Assembly: GCA_039621445.1 (NCBI GenBank)
Contig: CP154954.1
Location: 40,913,572-40,977,571 of the forward strand
From: Euglena gracilis
Lineage: Eukaryota
Length of the DNA: 64,000 nucleotides
Direction of reading: 5' to 3'
The notes under the pieces are model-generated. The model saw only the letters and a list, made by a program, of their open reading frames with translations. It had not been told where the DNA came from and made no database searches. This document shows positions 6,151-62,900 of this stretch, piece after piece (position 1 is the first letter of the stretch; every line of letters begins with the position of its first letter). The position numbers and the translations under genes were made by a program.

Positions 6151-6464
6151 GCCCCAATTGCAATTGGGGGTCGCTGAGGGCAAAAGCCCCCCCCCCTTTT
6201 GGCTCCCTTCGATCCACTTTCAAACACCCTACTCAAATGTTTGTGATCAACCACGCACACCCTGTCAGATGGTGGATGACATTCCCCATTCTCTATTTAA
6301 ACACATCTTTTCTGTTCTTTTCCTGGAACCCTTGCCTCAATATCACACTTGAAAAATGATCCAGTCTGTCATCCAAGATTGCCGTCTTTGCATCCCCTAA
6401 CACAAAGTTGTTCTTTTCCAATTGTCCCCCACTGAGTTTTCAAAACGTTTTAAAAGCTTGTGTC

Positions 6465-6752
6465 CAGGCTTCTTTTTAAGACCCCCGGGGGGGGAGGGGG
6501 GGGGTCCCCCCCACACACCCAGGGTGGCGCGGGACCCCCCGGGGGGGGGGGGGGGGGGGGGGGCGGGGACCCCCCCCCAAAATCGGGCCCGTTAAAGGCA
6601 ATTTTCAAAAATTTTCGGCGCTTCGCGCCGAAAAGGTATACCCAGCACCTCCGGCGCGGGACCCCCCGGGGGGGGGGGGGTCCGGCCCGGCCCAACGCCC
6701 CCACCCTCCCCCCCCGGGGGGGGGGGGGTCAGGTGACTTAAAAAGAAGCCTG
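6465..6752. mobile_element. MITE with 16-bp TIR CAGGCTTCTTTTTAAG and 8-bp TSD CTTGTGTC (hAT-like)
   Basis: Perfect TIR. TSD copies at 6457-6464 and 6753-6760. Confidence 0.95.
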
Positions 6753-6760
6753 CTTGTGTC

Positions 6761-7080
6761 ACATTTTACGAGATTTTGGTTGTTGATTGGCAAAAATAAA
6801 ATGGGGCTCAAAAAACCCGTTAAAAGCAAAATTGGCTGTTGTTTTCGCTTTCCGCCAAGCCTCATGCCTTCCCTTGCTGAATCAAAAGCACTCAATATTG
6901 TCATTTTTGACCTCGTGAGAGACATCACCTTCACAGCAATCATCATCCAAATCCTTGTCATCGTCTTCCAAGTATTCAAAATCAGGTTCCATCCAAAGCA
7001 TGGTGATTGCTGAACCTCGATAAATCATCGCTTCCTGCAATGAATCTGCAGAAGGTACGGAAAGAGTGTCACATGCATAG
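6761..7080 (-). repeat. Dispersed repeat, second copy inverted at about 44948-45245
   Basis: Both copies translate to EPDFE..LDDDC.EGDVSHEVKN..IECF and share flanking nucleotide identity. Confidence 0.85.
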
Positions 7081-7991
7081 GGGGTAGTTCGGGTCACGGG
7101 GGGGGGGACACCACATTTTCGGTCGCCAAATTCACCGAACCCAAGCTATAAGAGATTTTTCCATAAACTAGGAAATACCCGCTCCCGAAATTTGGTTTTG
7201 ACACCAAATTAGGTTTTGACACCAAATTAGGAACCAGCTGGGAAAGAGGTGCCTGGACCCCCACCAGAGGGGTGACAATTAACCGCCAAACAATCGTAAG
7301 AATAAGCGATTAACCGCGACCAACTGGGGGCAGGGCGGTCCTTAAACAAATAAAAAAAAAACAACTCTGCTGTCCCAGCACACTCAATGCAAAATCCACC
7401 GGAAAATGGGAAAAGAAGTTGGGAATTTTTCGGCAAGAACAGGTCGACATCGGGGGAAAAAATGATTCCTGGTGTCCTTGGACCATCGCCCATCCACCCA
7501 AATCATCAAAAGATGTGTGTTTGAACTTTTTAATTTTGGACCCTGTTCAAGTCCCAGCCTGGTTCTTGGCTGGCCCTTTGGCCGAAAGGAGGGGGGGGCA
7601 GTGCTGAAGAAAATAAAAAAAAAACCTTCCTGTCCCTTAAGGACCGCCCTGACTGGGGGTCCCAGATTGATTAACCAAACGTCTCAAAAAAAACAACATC
7701 ATTGAAGAAAAGCACTACCTCATCGGAGAACTCTTGAGTCGAACGGCAAAACGCCGAGGGGGTGTGTTTGAGAGCTGTCTGTGAGGGTACCCTCCCCAAC
7801 GACCAGGTCAGCTGGGTTCCCCACCCCCAAACCCCATTAACACCGGAACCACTGCTGGTCAACACCCCCGCATAGCGAAATTTTGGCAATTTTTCAAGAT
7901 GCATCGGTGCCGCCCAGATGTCCTCAGCCCTGGACGGCCCTACCGCTCCTTTGGCCAACAAGCAGGGCAACACACAACTGGCGTCAAGAGG

Positions 7992-17701
<9,710 letters not shown>

Positions 17702-18428: not shown

Positions 18429-19102
18429 CCCGATTTATACCTGACAATTGCTGAAATTTTGCTGTTCGGGGGGCATTGGGCAGCAGTGGTTCTGCTGTTG
18501 ATGGGGGTTTGGGGGGTGGGGAACCCAGCTGACCTGGTCCCGGGGGCTGATTGCGCATTTTGGCACCCCCCAGTTCCTGGCATTGAGTCAATCTGGCCCT
18601 CCCTGTGCCCCGATGTATACCTAAAAATTGCAAAATTTTGCTGTTTGGGGGTGTTTGGGCAGCAGTGGTTCTGGTACTGATGGGGTTTTTAACCCAGCCC
18701 CGGGGGCTGGTTGCGCATTTTGGCACCCCCTTTTTCTGGCATTGAGGCAATCTGGCCCATGAAACCACGCCCCCCCCCCAAATGCCCAGAAATTATACTT
18801 GAAAATTACTGATATTTTGTTTTTCGGGGGTGTTGGGCAGCAGTGGGAACTTTCATCTGACGGCACACACACAAACACACACATACCATAAAAAGCCCAG
18901 GGGGCTGTTTGCCAGATAAAGCCCGCGTAAGGGGGCAGTTGATAACCATGGGGAGCTTGAAGAGCTGGGGCCACAGGGACTGGGGACGCTGCAGGTTGGG
19001 GCCCAAGGCGGTCAGGGGCTGTGGGGTTTGAGGCCCAGGGAGACCAAGGACGCTGCTGTAGGGGGGGCAGTGAGGGTGGCCGGCAGCTGCGCAGGTGGGG
19101 GG

Positions 19103-19493
19103 CAGGCATTTGCTCAAGGACCCCGGGGGGGGGGGTACTGGCTAGCCAATCGGCTGGACACTGGAAAAAGTGGACTAGCTAGACCCCCCCTGGGGGGGGT
19201 CCGGGGGTCCCCCTGACTGGAAAAATGAGGCTTTTAACAGGTTTTTGGCTGATCTTGTTCCAAAAATTCCCAAAAATGGCCAAAAACGGGGATTTTTGGC
19301 CATTTTTGGGGGTCCCAAAAATAAATTTCGGCGCTTTGCGCCGGTCACTGGAAAATTTTTTTCCACTAGCTAGCCCTGCTAGCAGACCCCCCCCCAGGGG
19401 GTCTGCTAGAAAACCCACTAACCAAATTTGGACTAGCTGCAGTCCAGCCCCCCCAGGGAGGAGGGATACTGCAATCGCTTAAGCAAATGCCTG
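19103..19493. mobile_element. MITE with TIR CAGGCATTTGCT(C/T)AAG and 8-bp TSD GTGGGGGG
   Basis: TSD at 19095-19102 and 19494-19501. Confidence 0.95.
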
Positions 19494-19534
19494 GTGGGGG
19501 GTGGGGGGGCGGGGGCAGGGTGGCCAGAGCTGCG

Positions 19535-20760
19535 GAGGTTGAGGCCCAGGGTGGCCAGAGCTGCGGGGGTGGGCCAAGGGTGGCCAGGGGCTTTGGGGGT
19601 TGAGCCAGAGCTGTGGGCTTCGGTGGTTCAGGCGGTGGGGTTCAGGTGGCTGTGCGTAGCACCCCCGTTCCGCGCCGGGAACCCTCGCTCGGCCAGGGCG
19701 AACCGAGGCCAAGCGAGGTCATCCGGACACGGCCCGGGGGAGGTTGAGGCCCAGGGTGGCCAGAGCTGCGGGGGTGGGCCCAGGGTGGCCAGGGGCTGCG
19801 GGGGTTGAGCCAGAGCTGCGGGGGTGGGTGGTTCAGGCGGTGGGGTTCAGGTGGCTGTGCGTAGCACCCCCGTTCCGCGCCGGGAACCCTCGCTCGGCCA
19901 GGGCGAACCGAGGCCAAGCGAGGTCATCCGGACACGGCCCGGGGGAGGTTGAGGCCCAGGGTGGCCAGAGCTGCGGGGGTGGGCCCAGGGTGGCCAGGGG
20001 CTTCGGGGGGTTGAGCCAGAGCTGCGGGGATCGGTGGTTCAGGCGGTGGGGTGCAGGTGGCTGTGCGTAGCACCCCCGTTCCGCGCCGGGAACCCTCACT
20101 CGGCCAGGGCGAACCGAGGCCAAGCGAGGTCATCCGGACACGGCCCAGGGGAGGTTGAGGCCCAGGGTGGCCAGAGCTGCGGTGGGCCCAGGGTGGCCAG
20201 GGGCTGCGGGGGTTGAGCCAGAGCTGCGGGGGTTGGTGGTTCAGGCGGTGGGGTGCAGGTGGCTGTGCGTAGCACCCCCGTTCCGCGCCGGGAACCCTCG
20301 CTCGGCCAGGGCGAACCGAGGCCAAGCGAGGTCATCCGGACACGGCCTGGGGGAGGTTGAGGCCCAGGGTGGCCAGAGCTGCGGGGGTGGGCCCAGGGTG
20401 GCCAGGGGCTGCGGGGGTTGAGCCAGAGCTGCGGGGGTCGGTGGTTCAGGCGGTGGGGTGCAGGTGGCTGTGCGTAGCACCCCCGTTCCGCGCCGGGAAC
20501 CCTCACTCGGCCAGGGCGAACCGAGGCCAAGCGAGGTCATCCGGACACGGCCCGGGGGAGGTTGAGGCCCAGGGTGGCCAGAGCTGCGGGGGTGGGCCCA
20601 GGGTGGCCAGGGGCTGCGGGGGTTGAGCCAGAGCTGCGGGGGTTGGTGGTTCAGGCGGTGGGGTGCAGGTGGCTGTGCGTAGCACCCCCGTTCCGCGCCG
20701 GGAACCCTCGCTCGGCCAGGGCGAACCGAGGCCAAGCGAGGTCATCCGGACACGGCCCGG
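19535..20760. repeat. Tandem array of 6 GC-rich units of about 205 bp
   Basis: Units start at about 19535, 19740, 19945, 20151, 20353 and 20558 and are near-identical. Confidence 0.97.
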
Positions 20761-20879
20761 GAGACATTGCAGGGGATGTGGAGTGGGGTGGCGACGTGGT
20801 GTCGTTGCAGGCAGTCTCCTTTGCCACCACCAAAAACCAGGATTGCCAGGAGCAGTGTGGTCAGGGTGGAGTTGATGAT
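20742..20879 (-). CDS. Putative terminal exon IINSTLTTLLLAILVFGGGKGDCLQRHHVATPLHIPCNVSRAVSG*
   Basis: T-rich tract plus CAG acceptor, GC3-rich codons and a hydrophobic segment. A further candidate exon lies at about 24655-24750 (HLLASLIGASWMMINAFVP). Confidence 0.5.
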   Translation of the reverse strand: MINSTLTTLLLAILVFGGGKGDCLQRHHVATPLHIPCNVSRAVSG

Positions 20880-24650: not shown

Positions 24651-26860
24651 CGTTGTTGGAACAAAGGCGTTGATCATCATCCAGCTCGCGCCAATCAGAC
24701 TGGCCAGCAGGTGCACAGGTGCGCGAGGGGCCAGCACCACTTGGTGCCCATGGCCCTGGTGGGGGTGGTTCGGGTGGGTGAGGGCTGGGGTCTCCCCAAT
24801 GGGGCTGGTTGGCTGTGATGTGATGCACCCCAACTCATGTCGGTTGCACCCCCCCTCCGGTCCAGAGGGGAGGGGGTCGACCCCCCGCTGAACTATGCCG
24901 GGGTCGGGGCTTTTTTTTAAGACCCCCCAGGGGGGCCCACCAGCCTGGCGGGGGGGGGGGGTCCCCCCAAAAAATCGGGCTTTGTGAGACAATTGCCCAA
25001 GGATTTTCGGCGCCTCGCGCCAAAACCCATGCCCGGGTCTCTGCTGACTTGTAAAACGGTCCAGGCCAGTTTTGGGTGCGGCACAAAGCACTGGGCCGAA
25101 TACTTTTGCCCCCGCCCACCAAAACGGCCAAAATGCCATTTTGCGCACCAGGGGGGAAATTTGGCCCAAAAAATGCCAAAAATTTGGCACAAAGCGTTGG
25201 AAGGAAAAACTTGACTATTATGGGGGGGGTCCCGGGGATTATTTTTTGCCAGGCAGTGAAAAGCCCTCAAATCTGGGTTAGATTTGCTCCTTTGCTGGGA
25301 TGGGTCTTGATCCCCCTTGGGGCGAGGGGTGCCATTGCATCACAGTCAGCCTGAGGCACGGCCAGGCCAGAATGGGAAACATGAGGATTGGGGAGGTTGG
25401 CATCTCCCACCCATCCCTTGCCCACCAACGAGCTTGGAGGGGTTCCTCTTTTTGGGGGGTCAATCTTGCTCAAAAATTTTCCCAGAAAAATTGGCACTTT
25501 GGGTCAACCTTCCAGTGGTGCTGATTTGCCCCTCCCCCCCCCCCTCGGTCCGTCCGGACCCCCCAGCCACCCGCCACCAACCTTTGGGGAAAAAACTGCT
25601 GTGAGAGACCACTCCATTGGGATTGATTTTTGGAGTCAAAAAATTTTCGTACCAAAAATGGAGGGGGAAAATGGGGTACTCGCTCCGTTTGACCCTTGCA
25701 AACCACGAAAAGAATCCATGAAGCCCTCCCAACCAAAGCGTTCAGGCCATTTCCATTTTGGCCTGAGCACAGGGGGGGGGAGGTGGCTGGGCAATCCATC
25801 ATCGAGGGATGAGTTTGCTTCGGTTGCGGATACAGCGAGGAAAAAAAAGCCAGACCCTCCCCAGATTCCTAGAACCTTTGTTTGTTGGGAAATCTCAAAC
25901 CCAATGTCGCCACTGGGTGTTCAAGGTGCCATTTTATTTGTTTGCATCTTTTGTGCGATTTTTCATGGGTCTGACAGCTGTTCTCCCAAAGAAACGCTGA
26001 CCAATTCTCTTCTTTTTTTTTTGTACCAAACTCGGTGAAAAAAATCCAGATTTGAGAGATCAAAAAAGCACAAACCAAAAAATCCAGACAAAAAACTCAA
26101 CCCTCCAAGGAATGCCCAGCCAGGGTTTCAACCCTCCCTCTGGGGGTTTGCCATCTCCCCCCATTCTGCTTCCCTCCAGGGAATTCCTTGAGCGTCCCCC
26201 CCCCCCTGGAGGGGATCAGCTGAAGGAATTCCCTGCCCCAGGCCCATGGGCACCGGGTGCCAGCCCTGGGCGTGGGCTTGGGCTTGCGTCAAGGATTGTA
26301 AAGAAACCACATTTCGACCCAATAATGTTTCATACATACACATCCATGCACACATCTTTGTGCAAACAGGTATCCGGATAAAACGGCAGGAATCAAAAAC
26401 GGCGCTATAACTTTCAGGGAAAAATTCCAAGTTTGGAAAATTTGATGATGGAAATGTTCGACGTTCTACGGATGGGATGGCAAGGGACCGATTACAAGTT
26501 AAAAGCAGCCCCCCCCTCCCCCCCCACCGCCCCAACTCTTCTCAGCATTCCCCCCTCAAATCGACAACCCTGGGCCATCCCTTTCCAATCGTTGACCATT
26601 CAAAACGACATTGCTCCATTTGAAATGAAACCCCATCCTGGGCAAACAAAGATGGGTCACAGTATCATGTGGTGCAAACATGCACAAACAATGCACACAC
26701 AGACACCATTGGACCCCCCCAAATAATGCCCCCGGGCATTATTTTTTTCGCTCAAAGTCCCAGCCCCAGGGGGGGGGGGTATAATTGGGGGGTGAAAAGC
26801 ACCCAAAATTTTTTTGAAATTTTTCGGTCCCGTGGGACCCAAAATAGCACCTGAAACCCC

Positions 26861-27236
26861 CAGGGTTTGATATAAGGACAGGTGGGGGGGGTGGTCCGGA
26901 CCCCCCCTGCGGGCCAGGAGGGGGGGGGGGTGGGGGGGACATCCCCCGCCCACCTAAACAGTGGCGCGGTCAGGGTGACCGAAAATTTTTGACCCCCAAA
27001 ACGACCAAAAGTGCCATTTTGGGCACTTTTTGGGCAAAAAGATGCCAAAAATGCAAAAAATTTCGGCGCAAAGCACGGAGGAAAAAATTGACCCTTTTGG
27101 GGGGGTCCCGTATACCCCCCGAGGGTCTGTCCGGACCCCCCTGGCAGGTGGGGGGGGGTGGTCCGGACGCCCCCTGCGGGCCGGGGGGGGGGGGACCCCA
27201 CCTAAACCATGTACGCCCTCCTTATATCAAACCCTG
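26861..27236. mobile_element. MITE of the 13727 family nested in another repeat (about 26714-27500)
   Basis: TIR CAGGGTTTGATATAAGGA. The homologous host repeat at about 43045-43390 shows the empty site. Confidence 0.9.
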
Positions 27237-27557
27237 AACCCCCCTTTGGGGTCATTTTTTTTTGTACTTTCTCATGAAATTTAGCATTTTTGGAGGCCAG
27301 ATGATCCAGAAAAATCGATTTTTTTTGTAATTCGTTCTCAGAGATTGTGATTTATGCCAACGTTCTCAGGTCAAAATCCGGGCCGTCGGCCCGAAATTAA
27401 GGGGGGTATTAACTCGGTCGCCGAAGTTGGACCATGAGGAGGGGGGGGGGGTAGTAGTTGGGGGGCATCATTTGAGGGGGGGGTATTATTTGGGGGTTTA
27501 CCATCCTTGGGCATGTCGCGTTGGCGATGTTCTCTCTCGCGGTCTTCTTCATGTCGT

Positions 27558-30500: not shown

Positions 30501-33500
30501 AATCGATGGACAGACAGCGTAAACTTAAATGGACAGGTGCAAAACATATCTGAATCATGTCCAAAAGGGGAGTGGGCCAAGAGGGAATGGGTCAGGTGAG
30601 TGGCTTTTGGGGGGATCCCAGCCCCCCCCCCCCCCGGGTCGGTTCGGACACTCCGGTCCATGGGGGGGACGATCCCCCCCCTCTCGCTGAACAATTCGTG
30701 AAATCGAACCCTGGTTGAGAGACAATTTGACCAACTACACCCAGGGCAAAAGGCACCCCGACCGCGCTGCATGGGTAGCGGCGGGGCACCCACAGCAGCC
30801 GTGGGCGGACGTGGTCCACCCACAGCCAGCCGTAGATGCCGGCCACCGCTGCCCATGCCAACGCGTTGGCCAGGCTGCTGTCGATGGGCGAGATCTGCGG
30901 CAGGGGCAGCGCAGATCCTTGGTGGAGCGTGGATCCTTGGTCCTCAGGGGGGTCCCCCCACCCACCCACCCGCCCCTGGGGGGGGGGGGGGTCCCGCGGG
31001 ACCCCGTCAATTTTCCCCGAAAATGGCCAAAATCGCGAAAAATGCTAAAAATAGCACTTTCTCAAAAAATTTAGGCGCCGTTGTCGCTGAAAAGTAAATA
31101 CCACCCCCTCAGGGAGGGGGGGGGCGGGCGGGCGGACCCACCAACCCTAACCCCCCCCAAGGCCCCAAGACGCTTCCCCCACCCACCCAAGACTAAACGG
31201 GGCCAAACATGGGTCCGTTAGGGATCGGAACCAATCTGTCAGGGAGGACAAACACCGCGGAGAAGATTTGCCGCTTTGCCCCGAGAAATGTGTTTGGGGT
31301 CGCCACATGTTCACCAACCAGGGTCGGGGGGTTCTTTTGTGAGAAAATCCTCATCGCTCGCCCAGTTGGGGGGGGGGTGCATTCCTGAAGGGAAACCTGC
31401 CTGGTCACCCCCCGACCCAACCATGCGCCGCCCTGCGTGTCCAGCCCGCGGCGCCGATGGCGGTGACGAGGGGGACGACCCACCACCAGCAGCCGCGGAA
31501 CTGTGAGACAGGGGGGAAGGGGAATTCAAAGGCACTTTGGGATAATCCCCTGGCTGACAGTGAAAATGCCGGAAAGAAGCGAAAAACGCCTGGAAATCTG
31601 ACCAAGAGTTTTTTTTTTACAAGGCGGGGGTGCCCTGCAGGGGGGGTGCCATGCATTCCACCCAAGGGGAAGAGGAGGTCCGGGGGGGGGGGGGCGCATT
31701 TTGGAGGGCCAAAACAAACACATCCCAAGTCACAAAAAGTCAAACAATTTTTCAGTCCTTCATGCTTAAAATGGAGGAAAAGTCTGCTCCCAACCTTTCC
31801 AAGGTCCAACGATAAAAATCACTCACTTTTTAAAATTTGAAAATCATCATCAAATAATCACCCCCCGTTTTCATAAAAACACTCAAGCAGGCCACACACC
31901 GAACAGGTCGGCGGCCTGTAATGGCGGGCGGCGTTCTGGGCAGCTTCTCGTGCGGCTACGGCAGGTGCCCACTGTGAAGGGAAAGGGGATTGGAGCCATT
32001 TAAAATAAGAATCATTGGCAGGTGCATCTGGAGTTGAATGCTTCCACAAACCCCAAAGATAACCAAAGCTCAAGCGAGAATTATCAGGGGACGGCATCGG
32101 AATTGGAAGAAGAATTCTAAATTTTGCAGAAAAAAATTGCCAGAAAAAAAAATTGAACTATTACACCTAGCGCCTAAAGTTTTTGCCATGCCTGGCAAAA
32201 TATTGCCCCAGTGTGACAGAATTTTACTCAAGCCAGCACAAATTTTTGCCCTGTGCCCCAAACGTATTTGCACTTGTTCAGAAAAAATTCGCACTCCGTC
32301 ATATTATCGTTACTACCCGCCCCCCCCCCCCCCAGGGTTCGATATAAGGAGAGGAGGGGGGGGGGGTGGTCCGGACCCCCCCCCTGCGGGCCAGGAGGGG
32401 GGTGGGGGGGGCACCCCCCCACCTAAACAGTGGCGCGGTCAGGGTGACCGAAAATTTTTGACCCCCAAAACGACCAAAAGGGCCATTTGGGGCACTTTTT
32501 GGGCAAACATTGGTCAAAAATGCAAAAAAAAATTTTCGGCGCAAAGCGCCGGAGGAAAAAATTGACCCTTTTGGGGGGGGGTCAATTTTCACCCCCCAGG
32601 GTCGGTCCGGACCCCCCTTGCAGGTGGGGGGGGGGGTGGTTCAGACCCCCCCTGCGGGCCAGGAGGGGGGGGGGACACCCCCCCAACTAAACCATGTACG
32701 CGCTCCTTATATCGAACCCTGGCCCCCCCTTGTCGTACGACCGGGTTCCTGCAACTGATCGGGGGGAGGGGTCGTCACACCCCCATAACTTGCAACCTGT
32801 GACCAGGGGGTGGTCACAAATGAGGGGGGGTTGTAGGTAAGGTGGGGTTAAATTTTTCGAAACCTGCAACCTGTGACCGGGGGGGGGGTCGTAACACCCC
32901 CATGACCTGCAACCTGTGACCGGGGGGGGGTGGGGTGGCTGTACGACAAGGGGGGGGGGGGCGGGTAAATGAAAAAAGTCGCATTGCACCAATGGAAAAA
33001 GATGCATTACGGCTGGAGTTTCGAAGGGTGACTGCAAAACGTGCGAAAATTTCTGAAAAAATGTGCAAATATGCAAATTGTGCAAATGTTTTTTTGGCAT
33101 AATGTGCAGATACTTTTGAGATAAAATGCAAACAAATCCCCCCACTGCCCCAGGACCCAAACTTAAAAAACCCTTGGTCAGCATCCAGTCGCCCCCAGGG
33201 TTGGGTGGGCCTCCACGGGGGGGGGGGTTGCAACCCACTGTGGGGGGGGGTTAATATGGAAGCCTGGATATTTTTTGGCACTTTGCGCAAGCAAGGGAGC
33301 AAGCGAACGCCACTTTTAGCAACTCATCGCCACCCCCCCCACCGCATGGTGGAGGGGCACAGCCACCCCCCATGCACCAACCAGGGGTTTTTTTTAAGAC
33401 TGGGGGGGGAGTGGGGGTCCCCACCCACCCACCCCCTGGGGGGGGGGTCCGGGGGACCCACAAAAAAATGGCCGAAAATCGAGAAAAGTGCCAAAAATAC

Positions 33501-36500
33501 CATTTTTGGGCGCCTTTGGCGCCGAAAAGTATATCCCACCCCCCTCCGGGGGGACCCCCCCCGGGGGGGGGTGCTCGGCCGGACCCACCCGCCCTACCCC
33601 CCCCCCGGGGGGTCCACGACTAAAAAAAACCCTGGCACCAACCCCAGAGCCCCCATTGAAAGAAAGATATGAGGAGAAAACAGGGGGTGACAAACACACC
33701 GGCGCAAACAGGCACCACGGGCACAATGGCACGCGGTGCCCGTTCACGTCCGTCTCTTGCAGCCCGAAGCGGTGGTGGTGTGGCCACGCGCTTAATTTGT
33801 ATATAATTTTGTTTTATTTTCTGAGTCTCTTTAACTTTTCGAAACTTCAGGCGCGACCGACATCAAGCTTCATAAATTCCTGTGTGAATGGGACTCAGGG
33901 GTCTTCCCAGGTTAAAAGAACCCAAACCAGAGAGTGGTGTTCAACACAGGCTGGAGGGGATGAATGAGCTTGGGGTGGAAATCCAAACCAGGGGGGCCAG
34001 GGCAACACCTTCAGACCCGACTCATTATTTGGATTTTGTTTGACAAAGCAAATAAGCGCGTGGGCGGCAGCGAGCACAGAGGGAGGAGTCGGCCACCGCG
34101 TGCAGCATCTGGATGCGCTTCGCGGTGGCCTCCTCCTCCGTCTCGACAATCCACCAATACTCACCGGCAGGCTGAGTATTGGTGGAAGGCTGCAATGAAG
34201 AGCTGTTCTTTCTCAAAGAGGGTCTTCAACAGGGACAGCAATGGAGGTGTCCTCCCCCTGCAGCTTTTGTGGATTTGGAAGGCACCCAGGGGGAAAAACC
34301 CTCACCATATGAAAACCCTCACACTCGCCATATTTCATCATCTTTGACCCTTTCTTCAAAACTCCAAAATTGTGTCAAATCAAACAACACCCAGCCTGCT
34401 CGAGGAGTTGGCGGATTCCACGGTAGGGGGCGGTGATGGGGCCGAAGAGCCAGTCGATCCAGGTCGGGGCAGGGTGCAGCTGGCGGTGCCCCCAGGACCC
34501 ACTGGAGCGAAGGGGGCTGGGGCTGGGGTTTGACATACGGACAGGTGGGAGCTGGGGGTTAGACCGGGGGGGATCCCACCAAACAGTGGCGCGGTCTGGT
34601 GAGCGATCCGGCCCGGCGCAAAGCGCCAGGCTGAAAATGTTGCCCCTTCCCCAAAATCGGCCGAACGTGTTTCTTCCGGCACTTTTGGGCAAAATTTCTC
34701 AAACACACCAAAAATTGCCAAAAGTAACCCATAGAAATGGAAAATTTTGACTTTGGGGGGACCCCCCCCCGGTCGATCCGGACTCCCTTGGCGGTGTCCG
34801 AACCCCTGATTCAGTAGGGGCAGGGGACCCCTCCACCATACCCCCATACACCCTCTGTATATCAAACTCTGGGCTGGGGCCACACATCACCTTGCGCGGC
34901 CCTGGCCCAAAATGTGTGACAAAATGATTCTTCAAAACCCTCAGGGGCAAGGGGGGGACCCATTGGAGGTCTCAAAAAAAAAGCCACCCCGCGACTCCCC
35001 CCCCCCCCTGTTGCAGCCACTGGGCTGCATGGGAGCGACATCCCCACCCCATCGCAGTGTGGGGGGGTTCGACCCAACCAGGATTATTTCCCTCCCCCTC
35101 CTCTGAGGGTATGGTTATGTTCCAATTTTTGGAAAATAATGTGGTTCTGGTGATGGGTCATGGCATTGCTTGCAACCATAAAGCATTGCTTGGGGGAAAC
35201 AGGGTCAATTTCCATCCCCCCCCCGGCCGCTCAGGCCCAAAAATCAATGTGTTTTGGGCTTTTTTTTGCCATTTTCTGGACCTCTTTTTGACCATTTCTG
35301 GCCAACCCACCAGGGGAGGAGGGGCACAAAACCGGGAAGAAAACCACTCACTAACTGAGCACCACCCAGTGGGTCCTGTGTGGCGGACGCGCTCCTGCCG
35401 GGAGGCCTCCTGGTCCGCCTGCCGAACGGCGTCGGCGGTGACGACGTTGGCGGCGATGGGGACCTGCGGAAGAAAAAAAAGAACAAATACTAAGGCTGAG
35501 AAACATTTTGAGGAGTTTCAGGGTTTTGGGGGGTTGCCTGAAATTCACAAACATGGGGAACCTGGGAGCCAACCCCCCTCTACCCAGCCCAGCACAGGAC
35601 AGGGGGTTCTTTTTTAAGTTGCAGGAGGGTCCGGCCGAGCCCCCCCCCCCCCGGGGAATTATGTCATTGCTGATCGACCGGGGGGGGAGGGGGTCACTTT
35701 CCACTTTCAAAAAACCAGTCAATCATTTTTCAAAACCCAGCCACCCACTTCCCCCCCCCCCACCTGGCCGGGGTCAGTCACTTTGGCCACTCGGCAATCT
35801 GGCCCCGAAAATCACTCCCCCCAGGCCCCGATTTACACCAAATAAATTGCCAACATTTCACCATTGTGGGTTGTTGACCAGCAGTGGTTCTGAGTGGGGA
35901 ATTTGGGGGTGGGGAACCCAGCTGACCTGGTCCCGGGGGCTGGTCGCACTTGGTCGAACCCAGCTGACCTGGGCCAAAAAAAAAGGCCAAAAATCAAATC
36001 GAAGAGATTTTGGTCAATTATTTCCAGCAATGGACCAAAAAGGCCCGAGAGCATCATTGAGGGGGGTGGGGCATTCTTCAGTGCAAAATGGCTTGCCAGT
36101 GGACCCTCCCCCAGAGTCCTTTCGCAATGGCCTGCCCAGAAAATATCCATTTCAAAATTTTAACATTTGTCAGAAAAGGAAAAGACAAACCAGGGGGGGG
36201 AATGCGCTGGACGGCCCTCGGAACAATGCGCAAAAATGCGCAAAAAAAATGCGCAAAAAATGCGCTGAGTTTGTGACATTCCAAAGGAAAAGGACTTGGA
36301 AAAAATTCCAACAATAAACCCAAAGTTAAACCAAAATCATCAAAAAGAGCTGAAATGAAGGCAAAAAATGCATGACCAAGGCGTCACTCTCCGTTCACCA
36401 TAACCAACAACCAAAATGGCAAAATGTGCAAAATTGGGCAAAAAATGCGCAAAAATGGAAAATGTGCAAAATTGGGCAAAAAATGCGCAAAAAAAACAAA

Positions 36501-44060: not shown

Positions 44061-45847
44061 GCGGACCGGCCGCTGCAGCTTCCGTTGCCAATTACTGCTG
44101 CTGTTGTATATAGCGGACTACACAGCGCGGATTCACAAATTCAGCATCAAAATAGCGCAAACCGCTCTCTAACTGTTCTGATGTTTTCCACTGCAGGCTC
44201 CCTCTCTGCACCTATGGTTTCAATTCAAGATTGCGCTTGCGGAACCAAGTCCAAGGTCAAATTGCATCAATTTTCAAGGAATTCAAAAAAAGGCGCTGGA
44301 ACCAAGAAAGTGCAAAAGTCCAAGAATATCAAAAATCCCAAGGGCGGAGCAAGCAAAAGATCAAAAGATTGGCTATCTGCTGGCGCTGGAGGAGCAGTAC
44401 AAGCAAAAAAGGTGTTGGTGCTGGGGTACAAGAAGCTCAAGGGACGCCAAGCCGGACTCCCCCCTCCAACCACTCCCAAAAAAAAGGAGGGCCTTCGGTC
44501 CCCGGGAAACAAATCCTGCGTGGGAAGGGGAGTATCCCGAACCTACCCCTCTCCCCAAAGCCCATCGCGCCTACCCCCCACCCCGCCGGTACCCCCTCAC
44601 GGACCCCCGGTGGCAGCTTCAAAAATTTTATAAATTAAACTGGGTGTTTCTGGGTTTTTCCCTTGAAATGACTACCCCCCCCAAATAGAGGGGGGGTCAC
44701 GTTAGGGGGTGGGGAGTCCTCAAGCCCCCCCCCAATTGTCCACCCCCCATGTCTCACCCCCCTCCACCCTTCAGGCACAAAAAAAGTGGCCGGCCCAGGG
44801 AAGCGGACATTTGGGGGGGGGGTCAAATTTGCTTTCGGCGCCTTCGGTGTCGCAAATTTCCACTTTCTTTGAGGGGGCAATTTTGGCAAACCGTTTTGGT
44901 CAATTTGGGGGGGGGGGGCACTGAGAGGGGGGTGAGGCATTTCCCCCTGTGCATGTGACGATTCTTTCCGCACCTTCTGCAGATTCAATTTCAAGAAAAG
45001 AGGATTTATTGAGGTTGAGATTTACCAGTGGAACCTGATTTTGAAGATTTGGATGATGATTGCTACGAAGGTGATGTCTCTCACGAGGTCAAAAATGGCA
45101 CTATTGAGTGTTTTTTGATTCAGCAAGGGAAAGCACGAGGTTTGACAGAAATTGAAACAATGGCCAATTTTGCTTTTAATGGGGTTTTTTTGAACCCCAC
45201 TTTATTTTTTTTGCCAATCAACGGAACCAAAATCTTGTGGTGACCCAAAGGTAGAAAAGGTGTTGGAGGATGCAAAAGGAAAACGGCAGATCGATGAACA
45301 TCATAACAGTATGGTATCATGTTATGTCTGGTAGCATTCTGTTTGTATGCTATCATACCCCCCCCCCTTATTGTCCCCCCCCCTTATCATAGTGGGCCGG
45401 CCTGTTTTTTTTGACGTTGTTTTTTTTGTTTTTTTTAATTCTAACAATGTTTTTTTAAGAAAAACAAAAAACGCCCAGTGGGTTTTGCATGGAAAAATTT
45501 TTGAATGCACATTTTCAATGATTTTTGGCAACTTCTGGGTAATTTCTGCCAAAAACATCCTTCCACAAAAATGAAAAAAGTCATAAAGTTCCATTTTTGT
45601 TGCATTTTTGGATGTTTTTGACCATTTTTGGCAGTTTTGAACTTAGTAGGATTCTGTGTCAAGAACTGTGTTTGGGCCAAGAGTTAGGGGGAGCCCAGGG
45701 GCGGGGACCGCGGCGCCGAAGGCGCCGTGGTCGCCCCTGGGCCCCCCTAAAACCTTGGCCCAAAACACTGTTCTTGTTCGTGTTTGGGCCGATTTCGAGA
45801 CTTTAAAAGTCTTAAATCTTCGCCCAAAACACGGTTTCTATATCGAG

Positions 45848-45969
45848 AACTGTGTCCCAGACGCCGGTTCGGGCGGGAAACCTGTGCCTGGGACGCCGGT
45901 TCGGGCGGTAGCCCGAACCGGCGTCCCAGGCACAGGTTTCCCGCCCGAACCGGCGTCTGGGACACAGTT
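45848..45969. repeat. Perfect 59-bp-arm inverted repeat with 4-nt loop
   Basis: Arms at 45848-45906 and 45911-45969, loop GGTA. Confidence 0.97.
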
Positions 45970-48900
45970 TTTGAAACCGTGGCTAGGGGGCTCCGGTTTC
46001 ATGCCCGAACCGGCGGCTAGGGAATCACGGCCAATTTCGCCCAAAATACCCATGTTTGGGGCAGTTTTGGGCGATTTTGGCCCAAATGGGCGGCCGGTCA
46101 AAAATGGCAGATTTCATACTTATGAAGGCATGTCACCCATTAATCGAAAGCTCTTTTAAAGGGCTTTCGACAGATGGCCACAGGATTCGGCCATAATCAT
46201 GCTTGTGCTTACCAACCGGGGGGGGGAGGGGGGGGTGGGTGCTATAGGGTGCCTGCCCCTAGCAGGCACACCCCCCCCCCCCGGGGGGGATAGGGGTCCG
46301 GGCCGGACCCAGAAAATTTTCATTGAAAATGGCCGTTTCCGGGCCCCCGGCGCCTTCGGCGCCGGGGTCGGAGGGGGGGAGATCAGGCGGTGAACTTTGG
46401 GTTTTTCGGGCGGGACCCCCCCCACCCCCCCCCCTCTTCATTGGAAATACATGGCGGTGAACTTCACCGGTGAAGTTTCTCCATTGAAATTCCTTTAGGG
46501 GCGAAGCCCCCCAACCCCCCCCCCACCCCTGCCTAATCTCCGGGGTGCCTGCTAGGGGCAGGCACCCCCCGAAACCCTACCCCCCCCCCCGGGGGGGGGG
46601 TCGGATCGGGTGCTATGGGGTGCCTGCCCCTAGCACCCCCCCCCCCCCCCCGTGGGGTAGGCACCCGACTAAGCACAAGCCTGGCCATAATGCACGCAGC
46701 GCTTATTTTCAGCGATCGTGTATTCCAAAATTTGACATCCTAATTTGTCAAAACCCACAGCTCAGGTTGCATATTGCATGTCAAACGAAAGGTCTCGCCA
46801 ACACCTTTCGCTTGGTACCCACAGAACTCAGCCAGATTTCAAAGCGCCCTCAAAATCAGCGATCGCATTTTTCCGCATTTTTCGGACCCCATTTGCATAT
46901 CTGAAATTCCACTTTTCAGCTGCCATGTTGCCCATCGATCGAAAGCTCCTCTCAAGGGCTTTCTGCAGATGGCCTTAGATTTCTGTCATGCTGCGTGGTA
47001 TTCTATTTCAGAAATTCTCCAAAACTGGCCAAAAGGAAATTGTTGCTCAAAAAACCCCAATTTTTGGCCCAACACCACCCAAAAACTGCTAAAATATGAA
47101 TGCCACCTGTCTACAAACCCTTTTGGACACTTTTTGGCACTTTTTATTTTGGGTCCCCCAGACGCCGGTTTCCCGCCCGAACCGGCGTCTGGGACGCCGG
47201 TTCGGCGCAGAAATTTCCCGCCCGAACCGGCGTCCCAGACGCCGGTTCGGGCATGAAACCGGAGCCCCCAGACACGGTTTCAAAGTATGGTTTGGGAGTT
47301 TCATAACGAGTTTTTTCAATGAAATTTTCCTTTTGTTTTTTTTTGATGTTTTTTTTACTGTTTTTTTTTAAGAAAAACACGTTGTTTTGTTTTTTTTAAA
47401 AAAAACAAAAAAAATGCCCACTATGCCCCTTATTGTCCCTGGGCCCCGGCCGACGGGGGATTTTTTGGCCCGGCCAATGAAAATTCCTTTGGTACCCCCT
47501 TAAAAAAAAAATTTTTTTTAAAAAAAATTTTTTTTTGGGGGGGGGATTTAAAAAAATTTTTTTTTTTTTTTTTGGGGGGGTAAAATTGGCCCCCACCCAT
47601 TGTTGTCCGGTCGGGCCTCCCGGGGAGAAGTGGGTGGGACAATAAGGGGGGGGGGGTATTGGATCATTTTTCAGATGTGAGATTGAGGCAAGCGTTCCAG
47701 GAAAAGCCGCCCGAAATTTGCACCGGAAAATTGCCGAAATTTCGCTGTTCGGGGGTGTTGACCAGCAGTTTTTCCAGCAATAATCGGGTTTCTGGGGCCC
47801 GGGAGCCCAGCTAACCCGCTCCCGGAGGCTAGTCGCATTTATTGGCAACCCCGCTTTTCTTGGGATTGAGGCAATCTGGCCCCGAAAATCACGCCCCCAC
47901 GCCTCGATTTCACAGATAAAAAATTGTTAAAATTTTGCAATTCGGGGGGGGGGGGTTGAGCAGTTGTATTCCCCCTCCCCAAATAGCAAAATTTTGACAA
48001 TTTTTTGGGCGTCCGTCGGGGAGTGGTGTGTGCAAGACTGGGCATTCAATTCGCTCGTGAAAATTTTCCATCGTGAAATTTATGGCCGGCCGTTGAAAAT
48101 TTCACGCATTTTTTTCAAAAATTTCATTTGTACTTAGTATGGAAGACGTATTTTCCTTCGTTTGCCCTATTGCTCGGAACGAAGATTTGATTTTCTGAAA
48201 AAATAAAAAATCGTGAAATTTGCCCAGTCTTGGGTGTGTGCCAAACCGTGTCACCTGCCCCCCGGGACCAGGTCAGTTGGGTTCCCCACCCCCCAAAACC
48301 CCAGAGTCACCTGAACCGCTGCTGGTCAACATCCCACAATGGCAAAATTATGGCAATTTTTTGGTGTAAATCGGGGGCGATTGTTCGCTGCACGACCACT
48401 ATCCCCCCAAACGTCAGGGTCAGATTTTTTTTCGTGAAGGGTCAGGTCCCGGGGGCTGTTCTGGCACCCCACATTTCCTTCAACCTGGCCCTGAAAATCA
48501 CGTCCCCCGACCCGATCGACAGCCTCAAAATTGTCAAAGTTCTGCAATTCGGGGGGTTGAGCAACCGTTTTCCCACCTCGAAAGGCAAAATTTTGATAAC
48601 CTTTGGGTGTTAATCGGGGCTGGGGGGGGTCCCGGAAACCCTCCTCCTCATCTGCCTCGTTGAAGTTAGCTTACCCCCCTTATTGCCCCCCCCCCCCTAT
48701 TGTCCCTGGGCCCTGGCCGATGGGGGGTTTTTTGGCTCGGCCAATGAAATTCCTTTGGTTGTCCCTCGTGGTTCGGGACGCGGGGGGGGACGGGGGGGGG
48801 ACACGCGGGGGGGGGGACTGTGGCCCAACTACCCCCATATGTTTTCCTTGGAGTCGCCCAAATTTGCATGTAATTTTCCTTTGGTTGACCAAAAAATGTG

Positions 48901-56211: not shown

Positions 56212-56933
56212 TACATATATATATATATATATACATTCGGAAACAATAAACAAGGGATTTGCCCCCCAAAACGGGGTGGAAACACAAGGGATTTTGTTAT
56301 TTTGGGGCCCTCAGACAGACTCAGTTGCGGGTCGGGCCAGGCCGGGTCGGGCTACTGGGCTGAGGGCAGGCCGGGCTGGACTGCTGGGCCATCAGACCCC
56401 GGTGGGGGAATGCGTGCGTGGGCAGGCACCCCAAGGCACCCAGATCCGACCCCCCCAGGGCCAGGGGATTTCAAAACTCCCTATCCCCCTGGGCCGCCAC
56501 ACTGCAACCCGGCTCTGGGCTATATTTAAGGGCTTCTGAGAGTTGCTGGTTGGTTTTGCCCCCCAAGGATAGGGAAGTAACCCCTCCCCCCAGACGTTGG
56601 GAGGGTCCGGCCCTCCCACTCCTCCTCCTTGAAAGGTTCCAATGGCAGTGAAATTTTTACTGCCATTGGAAATTTTTACTGCCAAGTACTGCGCGCCGGA
56701 AAATGAGCAAAACAACACCCTTCTTCCTCACTTTGGACATATTGCCCGTTTTTTTTTTGATGTTTTGGTGGTCTCCACATGAAAAATGTGAAATAATTCA
56801 AAAAAATGAGTGTTTTCGGGTTCAAAAAAAATTGGGTATTTTCACCAAATTTGGCCCGATTTCTGGCCGGGCGGCGGCCACGATGGGCCCCTCCTCCTCC
56901 GCACCCCTGGTCCTTTGCCCCGCCTTCCCCCAG

Positions 56934-59900: not shown

Positions 59901-62900
59901 CTTCCCCCAGGATGGCCATATGATGGTCAGACGGTGGTGATTGCCACCAACTGTTTTTGGTGCATTTTCTCCAGTCACAAGGTGCAGAGCATGTGTAAAT
60001 CATTGCTGGAAGTGCAGACATGATGCGCGTGTGTGCGTGTTGTGCGTAACTGTGTAAAGGTGTGCGTGCGTGTGTGGGTGGGTGGGTGTTTTGGGAGCGT
60101 GTGGGCAGGTGCGAGTGAGTGTGAACGTGTGCAAGTGCTTACGTGCTCTCTCTCAACTCTCTCTTTCTCTTTGTGTGTGTTTGTGTGCGTGCATTTGTAT
60201 CAGGAGTCTTGGACTCCCAGGGGAGGGGGGTAGGACAGGTGGGTCCGGCCGAGCCCCCACGGGGGGTGTCCCCCCAGGGGCCGGTGGGATATACTTTTTG
60301 GCGCCGAATGCGCCGAAATTTTTCAAAAGGTGTTATTTTTAGCATTTTTCGCAATTCTTTTGGCCATTTTCAGGGAAAATTGAGTGGGCCCCGGGACCCC
60401 CCGTCCCCCACAGGGGGGGGGGGGTGGGTGGGGGACCCCTCCCCCGGTCTTAAAAAAAAAGCCCCCTGATTTGCATACGGATGAGTGAGTAAGTGAGTGT
60501 GTGCTTGCATGTGTTTCCCTGTGCCAATGTAGAGCGTCTGTGTATGTTTGCACCAGCCTTGCCCCTGATCGACCGGGCTGTCCATGCCACGACCCTCTCC
60601 GTCGGGGGAGGGGGCTGCCTACTGCCGTACGACCAGGTGCTGGCGGTGTGGCAAACCCTGAGCGTCCCCGGCAGCGAGGACACCACCCCCCGCTGCGACC
60701 AGAAGACGCCTGTGCCGCCGAGCTGGTGGCCGGGGTATGGATGCCTGCGCACCAGACGGCAGCACTCCCTGACGCTGGGCGTGCGCTCCAAGCCGACCAA
60801 CTGGCTGCTGTGTGTGACCCTTGTCATGGTGAGGCGCACCCCGGGCCCTTGAAATGCCATTTGCCTCGAATGGATCATCTGCACCGAAGATTTGTCAGGT
60901 TGAACTCCCATGGTATGGTTGGGTTTTACTGAGTGTACCTATGGCGGACGTTACGCCTTGTCAAATCCCCATGGGGTTGTTTGCTACCAGAGATGGGTTC
61001 GGCCCTTCTTCGGACATTTGTTGGGGGGCGTGCTAAATCCCAAAAACTCATGCCCGTGCCACTCCCACTTTTTGGACTTGGTATCTTTTAATAAACCAGT
61101 GCCTGGGTGTCATTGAGTACTCATCATTCTTGCACGAGCGCACAGTACCCACCAGGAATACTGAAAAAAATGAGTGACCTTATGACCAAGAACTGGTTAC
61201 AGATTTGATTTGGATTTGAAATGGCTGGATGAAGAGTGAGGATGCTGAAAGGATGGAGGGGGGCTGGGATCGCAGCAACCCCCAGCCTCTGTTCTCTCTT
61301 GCCAGCAGAGTCCGCCTCCCGTTGACCGTTGTGGTGGCGGCGATCATCACCGGCCTCGCCACTGCCTTTCTGTGGCGGTTCTCACCCATGGCTGGCCCAT
61401 CCCGTGCCCCGTGGCTTTGGGTGGCTTTGGGCGGGGGAGGGGGGGGATGGTCACCTGACTGGCTTGATGTGGGGCCGAGGGGGCAGGTGGGGGCCCGGCC
61501 ATGCGGGCGATCGAGCAGGAGATCCAGACGCTGCAGCGGGAGATGAACATTGTGCGGGACGCGGTGGAGTCCATCGGCGTCCGGCTCAACGAAGACTCCC
61601 ACAGCTGGAAAATCCTCTTTGCCACAACCAAGCTGTGGCTGGGTGTTTGATTACAAGCTTCTTTTTCATTCGGAAACGACGCATGCGTCGATGAATTCGG
61701 AGCCGATTTTGAGGGGCCTGCACCAAATGATTTGTGGGGATCCGAAAACCTCCGACGCAAAGTGCTCGCAAACGTTGATAAATGACCAAAGATGAAGGAA
61801 CCTGGCCATTTGAAGTGAACCAAATCAGTTTTGTCCCAAACTCCCAGGTTTTTTTTTTCAGAGCAATCAGCAGGGAATTGAGATTGTTCTGGTGTATTTT
61901 TTTGTGACCATGCGGACCTGGGCCAGGGGGATCCCAACTGGGGGTCTTGGCAGTTCCTTCTTGCCCAGCCATTTTCCCGAGGCTGGTTTGAAGCCAACCA
62001 AATCTCTGCCACATCCTTGTCTGGCTCTGGTGGCTGATGCTGAGCCTTTAGTTGTTTATTGATTACACTGCGTCCATTAATTATTGGTGCATTTTTATTA
62101 TTGCATTGTAATTAATCCTTTCAATTCAGATTATCATTTGATTATTTAATTGTTAATTATTTGATTGTTATTTAATTTTATTTATGCATTTCATTTTGGT
62201 TGAGACTCCATATTTTTGTCATGTCCTCTTCTATGCCATTTCTGTTCTGTGGCCGGAGCTTGGGCATGAGACTGATGCAAGGCAACATCATTGGTGTCGC
62301 ATATGTCAGGGACCCTGCAGCAACGTAATGTTTTAAGGAGGAGAATCATGTTCGGCAACTGAATATATTATTACATTATAGGCCTGGAGAGTTTCTCAGA
62401 CGAAAAGATACAATATTTGGCTGGGTGCATTGCATCACGATATTGAATTTGAGATTTTGATATTCATCTGATCTGATCGGATTTGATTCCCTTTCAGGCA
62501 TCAGTGTGTGTTTTGTGATATTTTTTTTGTGCATCATGCGTATCACAACGAAAATTTTGTGCATCCCCAGTGTATCGCCAAAGTTTTGTGTTTCATTGTA
62601 TATCATCAATGGCCCAGGCACTTTTGTGTATCACATATGTATCACCAAGAATTTACAGGAGAAGTCCAAATTGAAGGCGTTTTTTTTAATCATCTGTCAG
62701 GGGCTGAATAATCAAACACCTCACTGTTTTTGTAGACAGCATTCATCTCCTGACCCCGAAACCTCTCCCAGTCCATGGGCTGTGGTGATCGTATGTGCGC
62801 ACTGTACAATTGAGTCCAGTCCTGTGAGAGCAAAACCTTTGCCTTCCCTTACACCTTGCCGGGCTGGTGCTGCCCTCCTGTAAAGTGCACACTGCGTGAT

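Follow-up and report, generated by a model that had tools for sequence, protein, structure and literature searches.

MITEs with CAG-type ends and 8-bp target-site duplications in Euglena gracilis fit the nonconventional splice code and may seed new introns

Introduction

Nonconventional introns of euglenids pair CAG at positions +4 to +6 with CTG at -8 to -6, as the original prediction for this locus assumed and as published accounts describe (PMC4770533; PMC11282704). In knock-ins, splicing strictly requires 3 nt before CAG, accepts 5-6 nt after CTG, and is lost when a single base of CAG or CTG is altered (PMC12501133). The strict code reads N3-CDG...CH'G-N5-6|R, with a purine as the first base of the downstream exon (PMC12501133). 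At both ends, reported junctions read pyrimidine|purine (49-55 of 55), and the downstream exon has A at its second position in 43 of 55. In E. agilis, 84.4% of introns have short direct repeats at their splice sites. Intron 4 of gapC in E. agilis ACOI 323, which is strain-specific and was gained recently, carries eight-nucleotide direct repeats (PMC4770533). Both a MITE origin of these introns and a role of splicing as a buffer against insertions were published in 2014, 2024, and 2025, and the 2025 genome study itself continues to treat the origin as unclear.

The DNA analyzed here (the window) is a stretch of 64,000 nucleotides from E. gracilis contig CP154954.1. It holds MITEs that begin with CA, end with TG, and have 8-bp target-site duplications (TSDs), the sum of the 3- and 5-nt spacers of the splice code. 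The locus raises the question of whether such elements, once inserted into exons, could become nonconventional introns.

MITEs of the window

The window itself shows how the MITEs are built, how long their TSDs are, how they group into families, and that they moved in the past. All eight elements of the original prediction were recovered, with terminal inverted repeats (TIRs) and an 8-bp flanking duplication at each predicted start. The TSD is exact in six and has one mismatch in two (9902-10790 and 60201-60468). The 5' end is CAG in seven elements and CAT in one (8887), and the 3' end is CTG in all eight.

6465-6752 (with TSDs 6457..6760): MITE of 288 bp; exact TSD CTTGTGTC; TIR CAGGCTTCTTTTTAAG; terminal stem of 16 bp
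8887-9227 (with TSDs 8879..9235): MITE of 341 bp; exact TSD CTCCCAAC; CAT.../...CTG termini
9902-10790 (with TSDs 9894..10798): MITE; TSD GTGAAAAT/GTAAAAAT with one mismatch; host of the nested MITE 9994-10465
9994-10465: nested MITE of 472 bp within 9902-10790; exact TSD CCCCCCTC
13727-14163 (with TSDs 13719..14171): MITE of 437 bp; exact TSD ACCCCTGC
19103-19493 (with TSDs 19095..19501): MITE of 391 bp; exact TSD GTGGGGGG
33382-33634 (with TSDs 33374..33642): MITE of 253 bp; exact TSD GCACCAAC
60201-60468 (with TSDs 60193..60476): MITE of 268 bp; TSD ATTTGTAT/ATTTGCAT with one mismatch; weak left TIR

Unbiased scans of the window added six further elements.

7331-7651 (with TSDs 7323..7659): MITE of 321 bp; exact TSD ACTGGGGG; TIR CAGGGCGGTCCTTAA
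8086-8547 (with TSDs 8078..8555): MITE of 462 bp; exact TSD GGGTGCGG; ends CAGGGGCGTATGGGAAGCC / CAGGGATGGTGGGAAGCC
26861-27236 (with flanks 26853..27244): MITE with CAGGGTTTGATATAAGG ends; decayed TSD (6-nt repeat, three mismatches in the 8-nt register)
32333-32721 (with TSDs 32325..32729): MITE; TSD CCCCCCCC/GCCCCCCC, low complexity
45388-47425 (with TSDs 45380..47433): element of 2,038 bp; exact TSD CCCCTTAT; 10-nt TIR CATAGTGGGC
48033-48232 (with TSDs 48025..48240): MITE of 200 bp; exact TSD GGTGTGTG; 12-nt TIR CAAGACTGGGCA

The window thus contains at least 14 elements of 200-2,038 bp, which fall into at least five families by end sequence. All 14 start with CA and finish with TG, mostly as CAGG...CCTG, and in 11 the two termini read CAG...CTG; the stems formed by the termini, counted without gaps, span 2-21 bp. 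The TSD is an exact 8-bp repeat in 10 elements, has one mismatch in three, and is decayed in one. To gauge this length, the longest flanking direct repeat was scored for 1,897 outermost exact 10-nt inverted-repeat pairs in the window. Repeat lengths of 0 to 7 were found for 1222, 467, 123, 44, 18, 6, 5, and 3 pairs, respectively, followed by 8 pairs at length 8, and five 20-nt block shuffles gave zero pairs with a flanking repeat of 7 or longer. The excess of 8-bp TSDs exceeds both the geometric fall-off and the shuffles and is above chance.

The families are non-coding, with two to five copies each at 68-92% identity. Elements 13727-14163, 26861-27236, and 32333-32721 form one family (80-85% identity), and 9902-10790 and 19103-19493 form another (87-92% identity). 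Elements 33382-33634 and 60201-60468 belong to the same family in reverse orientation (74% identity), with decayed copies of the 33382 family near 29362-29609, 30948-31158, and 37775-37941. The termini of 8086-8547 place it in the 9994 family, both ends matching 9994-10101 and 10425-10465. Past mobility is recorded twice, by an exact-TSD element inside a PsaD-like frame (described below) and by the nested 472-bp element, which is missing from 19103-19493, the paralogue of its host 9902-10790, leaving an empty paralogous site. Rfam and tRNA scans gave no matches. When metagenomes were scanned for the 19-nt terminus of the 13727 family, two loci were returned that share one identical, unrelated sequence and lack the second end; these matches were read as chance.

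Assignment to hAT-like elements

The terminal inverted repeats of hAT elements have a YARNG-type end, and CAG-type ends occur in plant and animal hAT elements. The 8-bp TSD that the original prediction ascribed to hAT elements is documented for Hermes, whose transposase sets this length and prefers the target nTnnnnAn (PMC10368747). In the TSDs of the window, T occupies position 2 in 5 of 12 and A occupies position 7 in 5 of 12, a small sample from which two low-quality TSDs were excluded.

The search for a matching transposase in the window came back empty: Pfam scanning of 460 open frames gave no transposase domain. The frame survey comprised 668 frames of at least 60 aa, with 199 low-complexity frames and 12 frames in 55.2-56.6 kb left out. 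The 460 frames matched RVT_1 (E 2.3e-23) and, below the threshold, PsaD, the other matches (E 6e-4 or worse) being taken as noise, and no protein domain was found in the 2,038-bp element 45388-47425. A hAT transposase C-terminus was at first suspected at 6885-8171 on the minus strand and was dropped for want of Pfam and PDB support. The hAT assignment is drawn from TSD length and end sequence, the scanned frames having shown no transposase domain. Judged from these sequence features, the elements are best explained as non-autonomous cut-and-paste DNA transposons with a hAT-like insertion signature.

Insertion geometry and the splice code

A transcribed exonic MITE with CAG...CTG ends would be a ready-made nonconventional intron. 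Cuts would fall after position 5 in each TSD copy, so that the RNA would lose the element together with 3+5 = 8 nt, which is the length of exactly one copy of the TSD. The pre-insertion message would be restored in either orientation if TSD position 6 were a purine. The sum of 3 and 5 on which the original prediction built this model is sound with the published spacers. The acceptor spacer also tolerates 6 nt and a purine is required, so that removal would not always be scarless.

Ends of the CDG...CH'G type are present in 11 of the 14 MITEs, which, read together with their TSDs, reproduce the published N3-CDG...CH'G-N5 pattern. Three elements are off the code (CAT..ATG, CAA..TTG, and CAT..CTG). 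The first exon base would be a purine in 11 of the 22 orientations of the code-fitting elements, about the chance level, and the purine requirement would filter which insertions are tolerated. Two elements, 6465-6752 and 7331-7651, match the whole published code, purine included, in both orientations. The predicted RNA fold of 6462-6757 has 3 free nt, a CAG-to-CTG stem, and 5 free nt (-199.5 kcal/mol, z -3.8).

Published junctions offer two points of contact with this geometry. The eight-nucleotide repeat at the recently gained gapC intron fits what the model predicts (PMC4770533). The A at the second position of the downstream exon corresponds in the model to TSD position 7, and hence to the A of the hAT preference nTnnnnAn (PMC10368747). 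The chance of the spacers summing to 8 by coincidence is roughly one in ten.

The anatomy of the MITEs supports, without proving, the idea that such elements seed nonconventional introns. We infer that these MITEs are spliced through this code and have given rise to older introns. With moderate confidence, hAT-like CA...TG MITEs with 8-bp TSDs, which fit nonconventional splicing, are taken as the most likely source of new introns. A stronger form of the idea is possible but doubtful. It holds that nonconventional splicing arose, and still serves, as an RNA-level excision system fitted to hAT-type MITEs, that the transposase's 8-bp stagger set the 3- and 5-nt distances, and that any insertion into an exon is a scarless intron from the outset whenever TSD position 6 is a purine. 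If the 3- and 5-nt rule does mirror a hAT-like 8-bp duplication, an odd cutting rule would be simply explained, and a whole splicing pathway would amount to scarless RNA-level repair of transposon insertions that permits massive intron gain. The RNA-level excision reading, if true, would also account for the majority of Euglena introns being nonconventional and for the shared Y|R junctions, the A at exon position 2, and the short direct repeats.

Exonic insertions and candidate introns

The one MITE of the window associated with a protein-like frame is 8086-8547.

8256..8819, minus strand: PsaD-like open frame, which enters MITE 8086-8547 directly after ...EVRCPHP

PDB matches of this frame are 9vfj_D (a 698-aa chain with three PsaD units, E 3.5e-25), 9vjs_D, and 9uas_D, and its Pfam PsaD match (E 0.003) lies under the cut-off. 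Residues that are alike across all aligned PsaD chains shown differ in the frame, and beyond the MITE the sole PsaD-like stretch is VLPEKV. A homologous-protein search with the frame found nothing. The frame is probably a pseudogene fragment. When scarless removal was simulated for the MITEs of the window, long open frames were fused for 8086-8547 only, and there the PsaD frame was left one base off and so was not restored. By this open-frame fusion test, none of the 14 MITEs in the window was seen in a live exon.

The original prediction also placed older introns at eight junctions, listed without coordinates, in two genes of the window, and proposed that cutting restores the frame at seven of them. 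Candidate junctions on the plus strand were re-derived with its cutting rule and frame continuity.

59778-60566, plus strand: candidate nonconventional intron of 789 nt; stem CAGGGCTGG/CCAGCCTTG; would join ...LRDEKYSAA|E|IDRAVHATT in frame, by frame logic
61384-61508, plus strand: candidate nonconventional intron of 125 nt; stem CATGGCTGG/CCGGCCATG; would join ...AFLWRF|S|IEQEIQ..., by frame logic
60822-61338, plus strand: alternative candidate junction; stem CATGGTG/CGTTGTG, by frame logic

The frame joined across 61384-61508 would end ...LWLGV, and this candidate ends where the original prediction ended. The 60822-61338 reading is rivalled by a GT...AG reading from 60829 to 61305. MITE 60201-60468 falls within candidate intron 59778-60566.

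The ends of the three candidates (CAG..TTG, CAT..ATG, and CAT..GTG) all lie outside the strict published CDG...CH'G code. The picture of donors, intermediates, and old introns sitting side by side found no support: none of the three candidates resembles a MITE family of the window, and the two that were scored show no TSD relic, the 8-mers in the TSD register matching at 3/8 positions for 59778-60566 and 1/8 for 61384-61508. Blind enumeration of CA...TG stems flanked by open frames gave hundreds to thousands of candidates and so cannot identify introns alone. Screens of GC3 and composition did not draw gene limits reliably. Homologous-protein searches with the 60493-60849 frame and the last-exon frame found no spliced product. 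A representative-protein search gave one 102-aa protein (944-nt contig), which is unspliced, since its frame continues straight through the presumed donor. Sampled words of 56900-62100 were present at 9-21% in 19 contig runs (RNA only by guess) and at 88% in one run. Four raw RNA-seq runs were also among the runs listed for this segment, and none of the listed runs that contain its words is recorded as RNA.

These results bear on the unlikely alternative that the resemblance is a coincidence. The elements would then be ordinary hAT-like MITEs of intergenic and intronic DNA, the introns would arise in other ways, for instance through double-strand-break repair or by drift from conventional introns, and the CAG ends and the 3+5 = 8 sum would be causally unlinked. 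The outcome of the fusion test and the unlikeness of the candidate introns to the MITE families both agree with this, as does the reading of the eight-nucleotide gapC repeat as break repair by its own authors (PMC4770533); conventional 3' splice sites in E. gracilis likewise usually carry CAG. Several independent features nevertheless converge, namely the CAG/CTG identity, the pairing register, the spacer sum, the Y|R step at both junctions, and the eight-nucleotide repeat at a young intron, and terminal inverted repeats are not expected from break repair.

Direction of adaptation

Splicing could instead have come first. Only transposon families with suitable ends and TSD length would then have persisted and multiplied in genes, by introner-like selection, and the host system would not have been shaped to remove them. 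Introner elements are usually explained in this way (PMC11282704; PMC7789003). The three elements off the code also suit it, as they indicate that not all local families are adapted. If CAG-type hAT ends are widespread, however, these features predate euglenid selection and the element would have had little to adapt. The 8-bp TSD, moreover, is fixed by the transposase, as in Hermes (PMC10368747), and this direction of events is considered improbable. Least probable by far is that excised circular intron RNAs were copied back into DNA to yield MITE-like families: nonconventional introns are indeed released as full-length circles (PMC11282704; PMC12501133), but every copy has its own 8-bp flanking duplication, none contains an internal 3+5 nt circle junction, and the copies lie mostly outside open frames, one nested in another MITE, all of which fits cut-and-paste transposition.

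The preferred reading is the insertion of hAT-like MITEs as a source of introns, and it has parallels in other systems.

Comparison with known systems

Maize Dissociation (Ds), a hAT-family element, was reportedly found by Giroux et al. in 1994 to be removed from the transcript as a de novo intron when located in an exon. Its removal is said to use conventional splice sites and not to be scarless, unlike the euglenid model.

Introner elements of Amoebophrya (PMC7789003) and non-canonical introns of Fritillaria and Micromonas (PMC11282704) are likewise described as non-autonomous TIR elements that act as introns, with hairpins that join the ends. Their direct repeats span the exon/intron borders, so that the element and one repeat copy are removed. 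Unlike the euglenid case, these repeats are 3-5 nt long and a modified spliceosome is held responsible; the euglenid repeat would instead be 8 nt long, with cut sites set by their distance from the CAG-CTG stem and with circles as the released product.

The closest precedent is the MITE-origin hypothesis itself (Milanowski et al., 2014, PMC3935182; 2016, PMC4770533; review, PMC11282704; Euglena agilis, PMC12501133), in which the inverted repeats at intron ends are interpreted as TIRs and the short direct repeats at junctions as TSD-like. The same papers place CAG/CTG at +4 to +6/-8 to -6 and suggest that the splicing machinery mitigates transposon insertions. The original prediction was right that a transposon origin is in print, but the idea is less new than it implied, as a MITE origin, TSD-like junction repeats, and splicing as mitigation of insertions have all been published. 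In 2014, transposable elements were not yet known in euglenids (PMC3935182). These papers name no actual MITE family, and in the texts searched both the term 'hAT' and a TSD of '8 bp' are absent, although their supplementary tables may hold relevant repeats. The window, in contrast, provides real families with CAGG ends and 8-bp TSDs, and whereas the 2016 work ascribed the eight-nucleotide repeat to break repair, the 3+5 register is here tied to the TSD. Relative to the papers searched, the actual MITE families, the hAT-like 8-bp TSD, and the 3+5 = 8 register are new, and together they refine a known hypothesis in a plausible and testable way.

Terminal Inverted Repeats and Target-Site Duplications

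The MITEs (short non-autonomous transposons with terminal inverted repeats) in this region stand up to checking. Their geometry is hAT-like, and they already have exactly the shape that nonconventional splicing would require. The original prediction listed eight with CA(G)...CTG ends and 8-bp target-site duplications (TSDs). A search at each start for inverted ends and a copy of the 8 bases to its left bore out all eight (six exact TSDs). CAG opens seven of them and CAT one, and CTG closes 8/8.

MITEs of the original list
6465-6752, TSD 8 bp exact
8887-9227, TSD 8 bp exact
9902-10790, TSD with one mismatch
9994-10465, TSD 8 bp exact
13727-14163, TSD 8 bp exact
19103-19493, TSD 8 bp exact
33382-33634, TSD 8 bp exact
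60201-60468, flanks ATTTGTAT/ATTTGCAT, left end weak; copy overlooked by a strict script and found by direct reading

Elements added by scans and closer inspection
7331-7651
8086-8547
26861-27236
32333-32721
45388-47425
48033-48232

The window has a G+C content of 42-61% and abounds in short elements with many runs of G and C. In a first scan, exact terminal inverted repeats of 10 nt, no more than 2.5 kb apart, were sought along its full length, and 1,897 outermost pairs were kept. The longest flanking direct repeat was 0 to 9 nt in 1222, 467, 123, 44, 18, 6, 5, 3, 8, and 1 of these pairs, respectively, a steady drop with length followed by a peak at exactly 8. Seven of the eight pairs with an 8-nt repeat start with CA, the remaining one being an A/T run. 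A looser scan (12/14 end bases matching) also gave eight pairs at length 8, and five shuffles of 20-nt blocks gave zero pairs with repeats of at least 7. TSDs of all 14 elements are exact in 10, carry one mismatch in three, and are decayed in one; the ends are CA...TG in 14/14, with CAG...CTG at both ends in 11.

Families and Mobility

Elements were grouped by BLAST against the window.

MITE families
13727, 26861, and 32333 (element starts), 80-85% identity
9902 and 19103, 87-92% identity
33382 and 60201, plus decayed copies near 29362, 30948, and 37775
9994 and 8086, matching at both termini

Within the third family, 60201-60468 matches 33382-33634 in reverse orientation (74% identity). Element 9902-10790 carries 9994-10465 nested within it, and its paralogue 19103-19493 is without the 472-bp insert at the corresponding site. 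A CAGG tip followed by (T/A)TAAG about 12-16 nt inward is common to several families (6465, 7331, 9902, 19103, the 13727 family, and 33382), and one transposase type may mobilise all families with such ends. The 8-bp TSD and CAG-type ends point to a hAT-like transposase, as judged from sequence; P-like or other families with 8-bp TSDs are a possible alternative source. Hermes is documented with an 8-bp TSD and an nTnnnnAn target preference (PMC10368747). None of 460 open frames scanned in the window has a transposase domain; the elements would thus be non-autonomous, with a partner outside the window. The window has 668 frames of at least 60 aa, and 199 low-complexity frames and 12 in 55.2-56.6 kb were excluded before the scan.

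Other repeats are present. A retroelement at 1-6125 (minus) runs off the window start; its frame 3-677 (minus) matches the reverse-transcriptase family RVT_1 (E 2.3e-23), frames at 2564-3477 (minus) look by eye like a tyrosine recombinase with no Pfam match, and 5711-6125 holds long inverted repeats. Two open frames at 42668-44110 (plus) resemble by eye a LINE-type retroelement tail, also with no Pfam match. Two diverged copies of one repeat (78% identity, opposite orientation) lie at 6768-7084 (minus) and 44943-45238 (plus), and also at 6317-6363 and 47660-47706. An acidic peptide, ...EPDFE.L.DDDC.EGDVSHEVKN..IECF, is encoded in both copies and matches no family, and a different element is inserted near each (6465-6752 and 45388-47425). 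Tandem arrays occupy 19534-20761, 38855-39792, 39891-40503, and 12779-13136; the types are six copies of a 205-bp unit (96% matches), 27 copies of a 24-bp unit in which either strand has long open frames, a G-rich array of 27/54 bp, and (TG)181. No tRNA genes or Rfam families at gathering threshold were found in the 64-kb window.

Agreement With the Nonconventional Splice Code

According to PMC12501133, CAG and CTG are both required for splicing, as determined by knock-in; exactly 3 nt must precede CAG, and 5 nt (6 are tolerated) follow CTG. A purine is obligatory as the first exon base, 61.2% of nonconventional introns fit N3-CDG...CH'G-N5-6|R, and short direct repeats border 84.4% of all introns (PMC12501133). 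With an 8-bp TSD, each of the two cuts would come between TSD positions 5 and 6, and the RNA would lose the element plus 8 nt, keeping one TSD copy. The proposed arithmetic, in which 3+5=8 removes the element and one TSD copy in either orientation, is correct given the published spacers. Eleven of the 14 elements match the published motif, and 6465-6752 and 7331-7651 fit the whole code in both orientations. The predicted RNA fold of 6462-6757 has 3 free nt, a terminal stem, and 5 free nt, as expected.

Three published observations, none used in the original prediction, fit this model. In E. agilis gapC, the junctions of a strain-specific, recently gained intron carry direct repeats of eight nucleotides, which exceed those of older introns in length and which its authors read as break repair (PMC4770533). 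The pyrimidine|purine pattern is alike at both junctions (49-55/55 introns), which would follow if each were located in one copy of the same TSD. In 43/55 introns, the downstream exon has A as its second base; under the model, this base would correspond to TSD position 7, where nTnnnnAn has its A.

On balance, we slightly favor the inference that splicing removes these MITEs and that they gave rise to old introns. Coincidence between the two geometries appears rather improbable, and so, to the same degree, does the same link with selection acting in the opposite direction. An origin as retro-mobile introns is very improbable.

Candidate Introns

The original prediction placed eight junctions bounded by CA...TG stems in two genes. 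Candidates on the plus strand were found by its rule and frame continuity.

Candidate introns, based on frame only
59778-60566 (plus), nonconventional, stem CAG..TTG, contains MITE 60201-60468
60822-61338 (plus), candidate junction, stem CAT..GTG, rival GT...AG reading
61384-61508 (plus), nonconventional, stem CAT..ATG, C-terminus ...LWLGV, last position equal to the end coordinate given in the original prediction

All three stems fall outside the strict published motif, and the candidates have no similarity to the window's MITE families. The 8-mers in TSD register match at 3/8 positions for 59778-60566 and 1/8 for 61384-61508. Frame restoration alone is weak evidence for these junctions because an unguided search for stems returns hundreds that keep the frame just as well. 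The spliced product of the 60.5-kb exon has no match in protein databases, the sole match being to the unspliced 102-aa product.

A PsaD-Like Frame Interrupted by a MITE

MITEs of this kind do insert into coding sequence.

8256-8819 (minus), PsaD-like open frame, matching PDB chains

Its PDB matches are a chain of 698 aa that holds three PsaD units (E 3.5e-25) and two chains with one PsaD unit each (E about 4e-8); in Pfam, PsaD scores below threshold. Three units in one chain is an arrangement typical of Euglena, and the reading of the window as euglenid is based on this match together with the sequence's general style. Several residues invariant in all aligned PsaD chains shown are changed, so we read the locus as a probable pseudogene or very divergent copy. 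The frame ends ...EVRCPHP at element 8086-8547, which has the exact TSD GGGTGCGG. In silico removal of the element and one TSD copy gives HP-ED-.-VLPEKV (PsaD, HPKDGVFPE), collinear with PsaD but one base out of frame, and no PsaD similarity was detected past VLPEKV. Reading through into the element's right end (8530-8560, minus), the first 10 nt in frame add RDG after HP, and HPRDG resembles HPKDG of PsaD. In-frame joining as HPRD|VLPEKV would also result from use of a GT...AG pair that lies in the element and the adjoining flank. Either the likeness and this option are due to chance, or the true intron borders differ from those of the TSD and inverted repeats. The case is uninformative on splicing. 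Scarless removal simulated for the other 13 elements on both strands gave no convincing open-frame fusion.

Relation to Earlier Proposals

A MITE-like origin of nonconventional introns is already in print (PMC3935182), TSD-like repeats at the junctions have been drawn (PMC11282704), and splicing has been proposed as mitigation of transposon insertions (PMC12501133). Within the main text of the open full-text literature searched, no actual euglenid MITE family, no mention of hAT or an 8-bp TSD in the context of euglenid introns, and no statement that 3+5 equals the TSD was found. Relative to the known MITE-origin hypothesis as found in those texts, the new parts are the actual families, the hAT-like 8-bp TSD, and the equivalence of 3+5 and the TSD.
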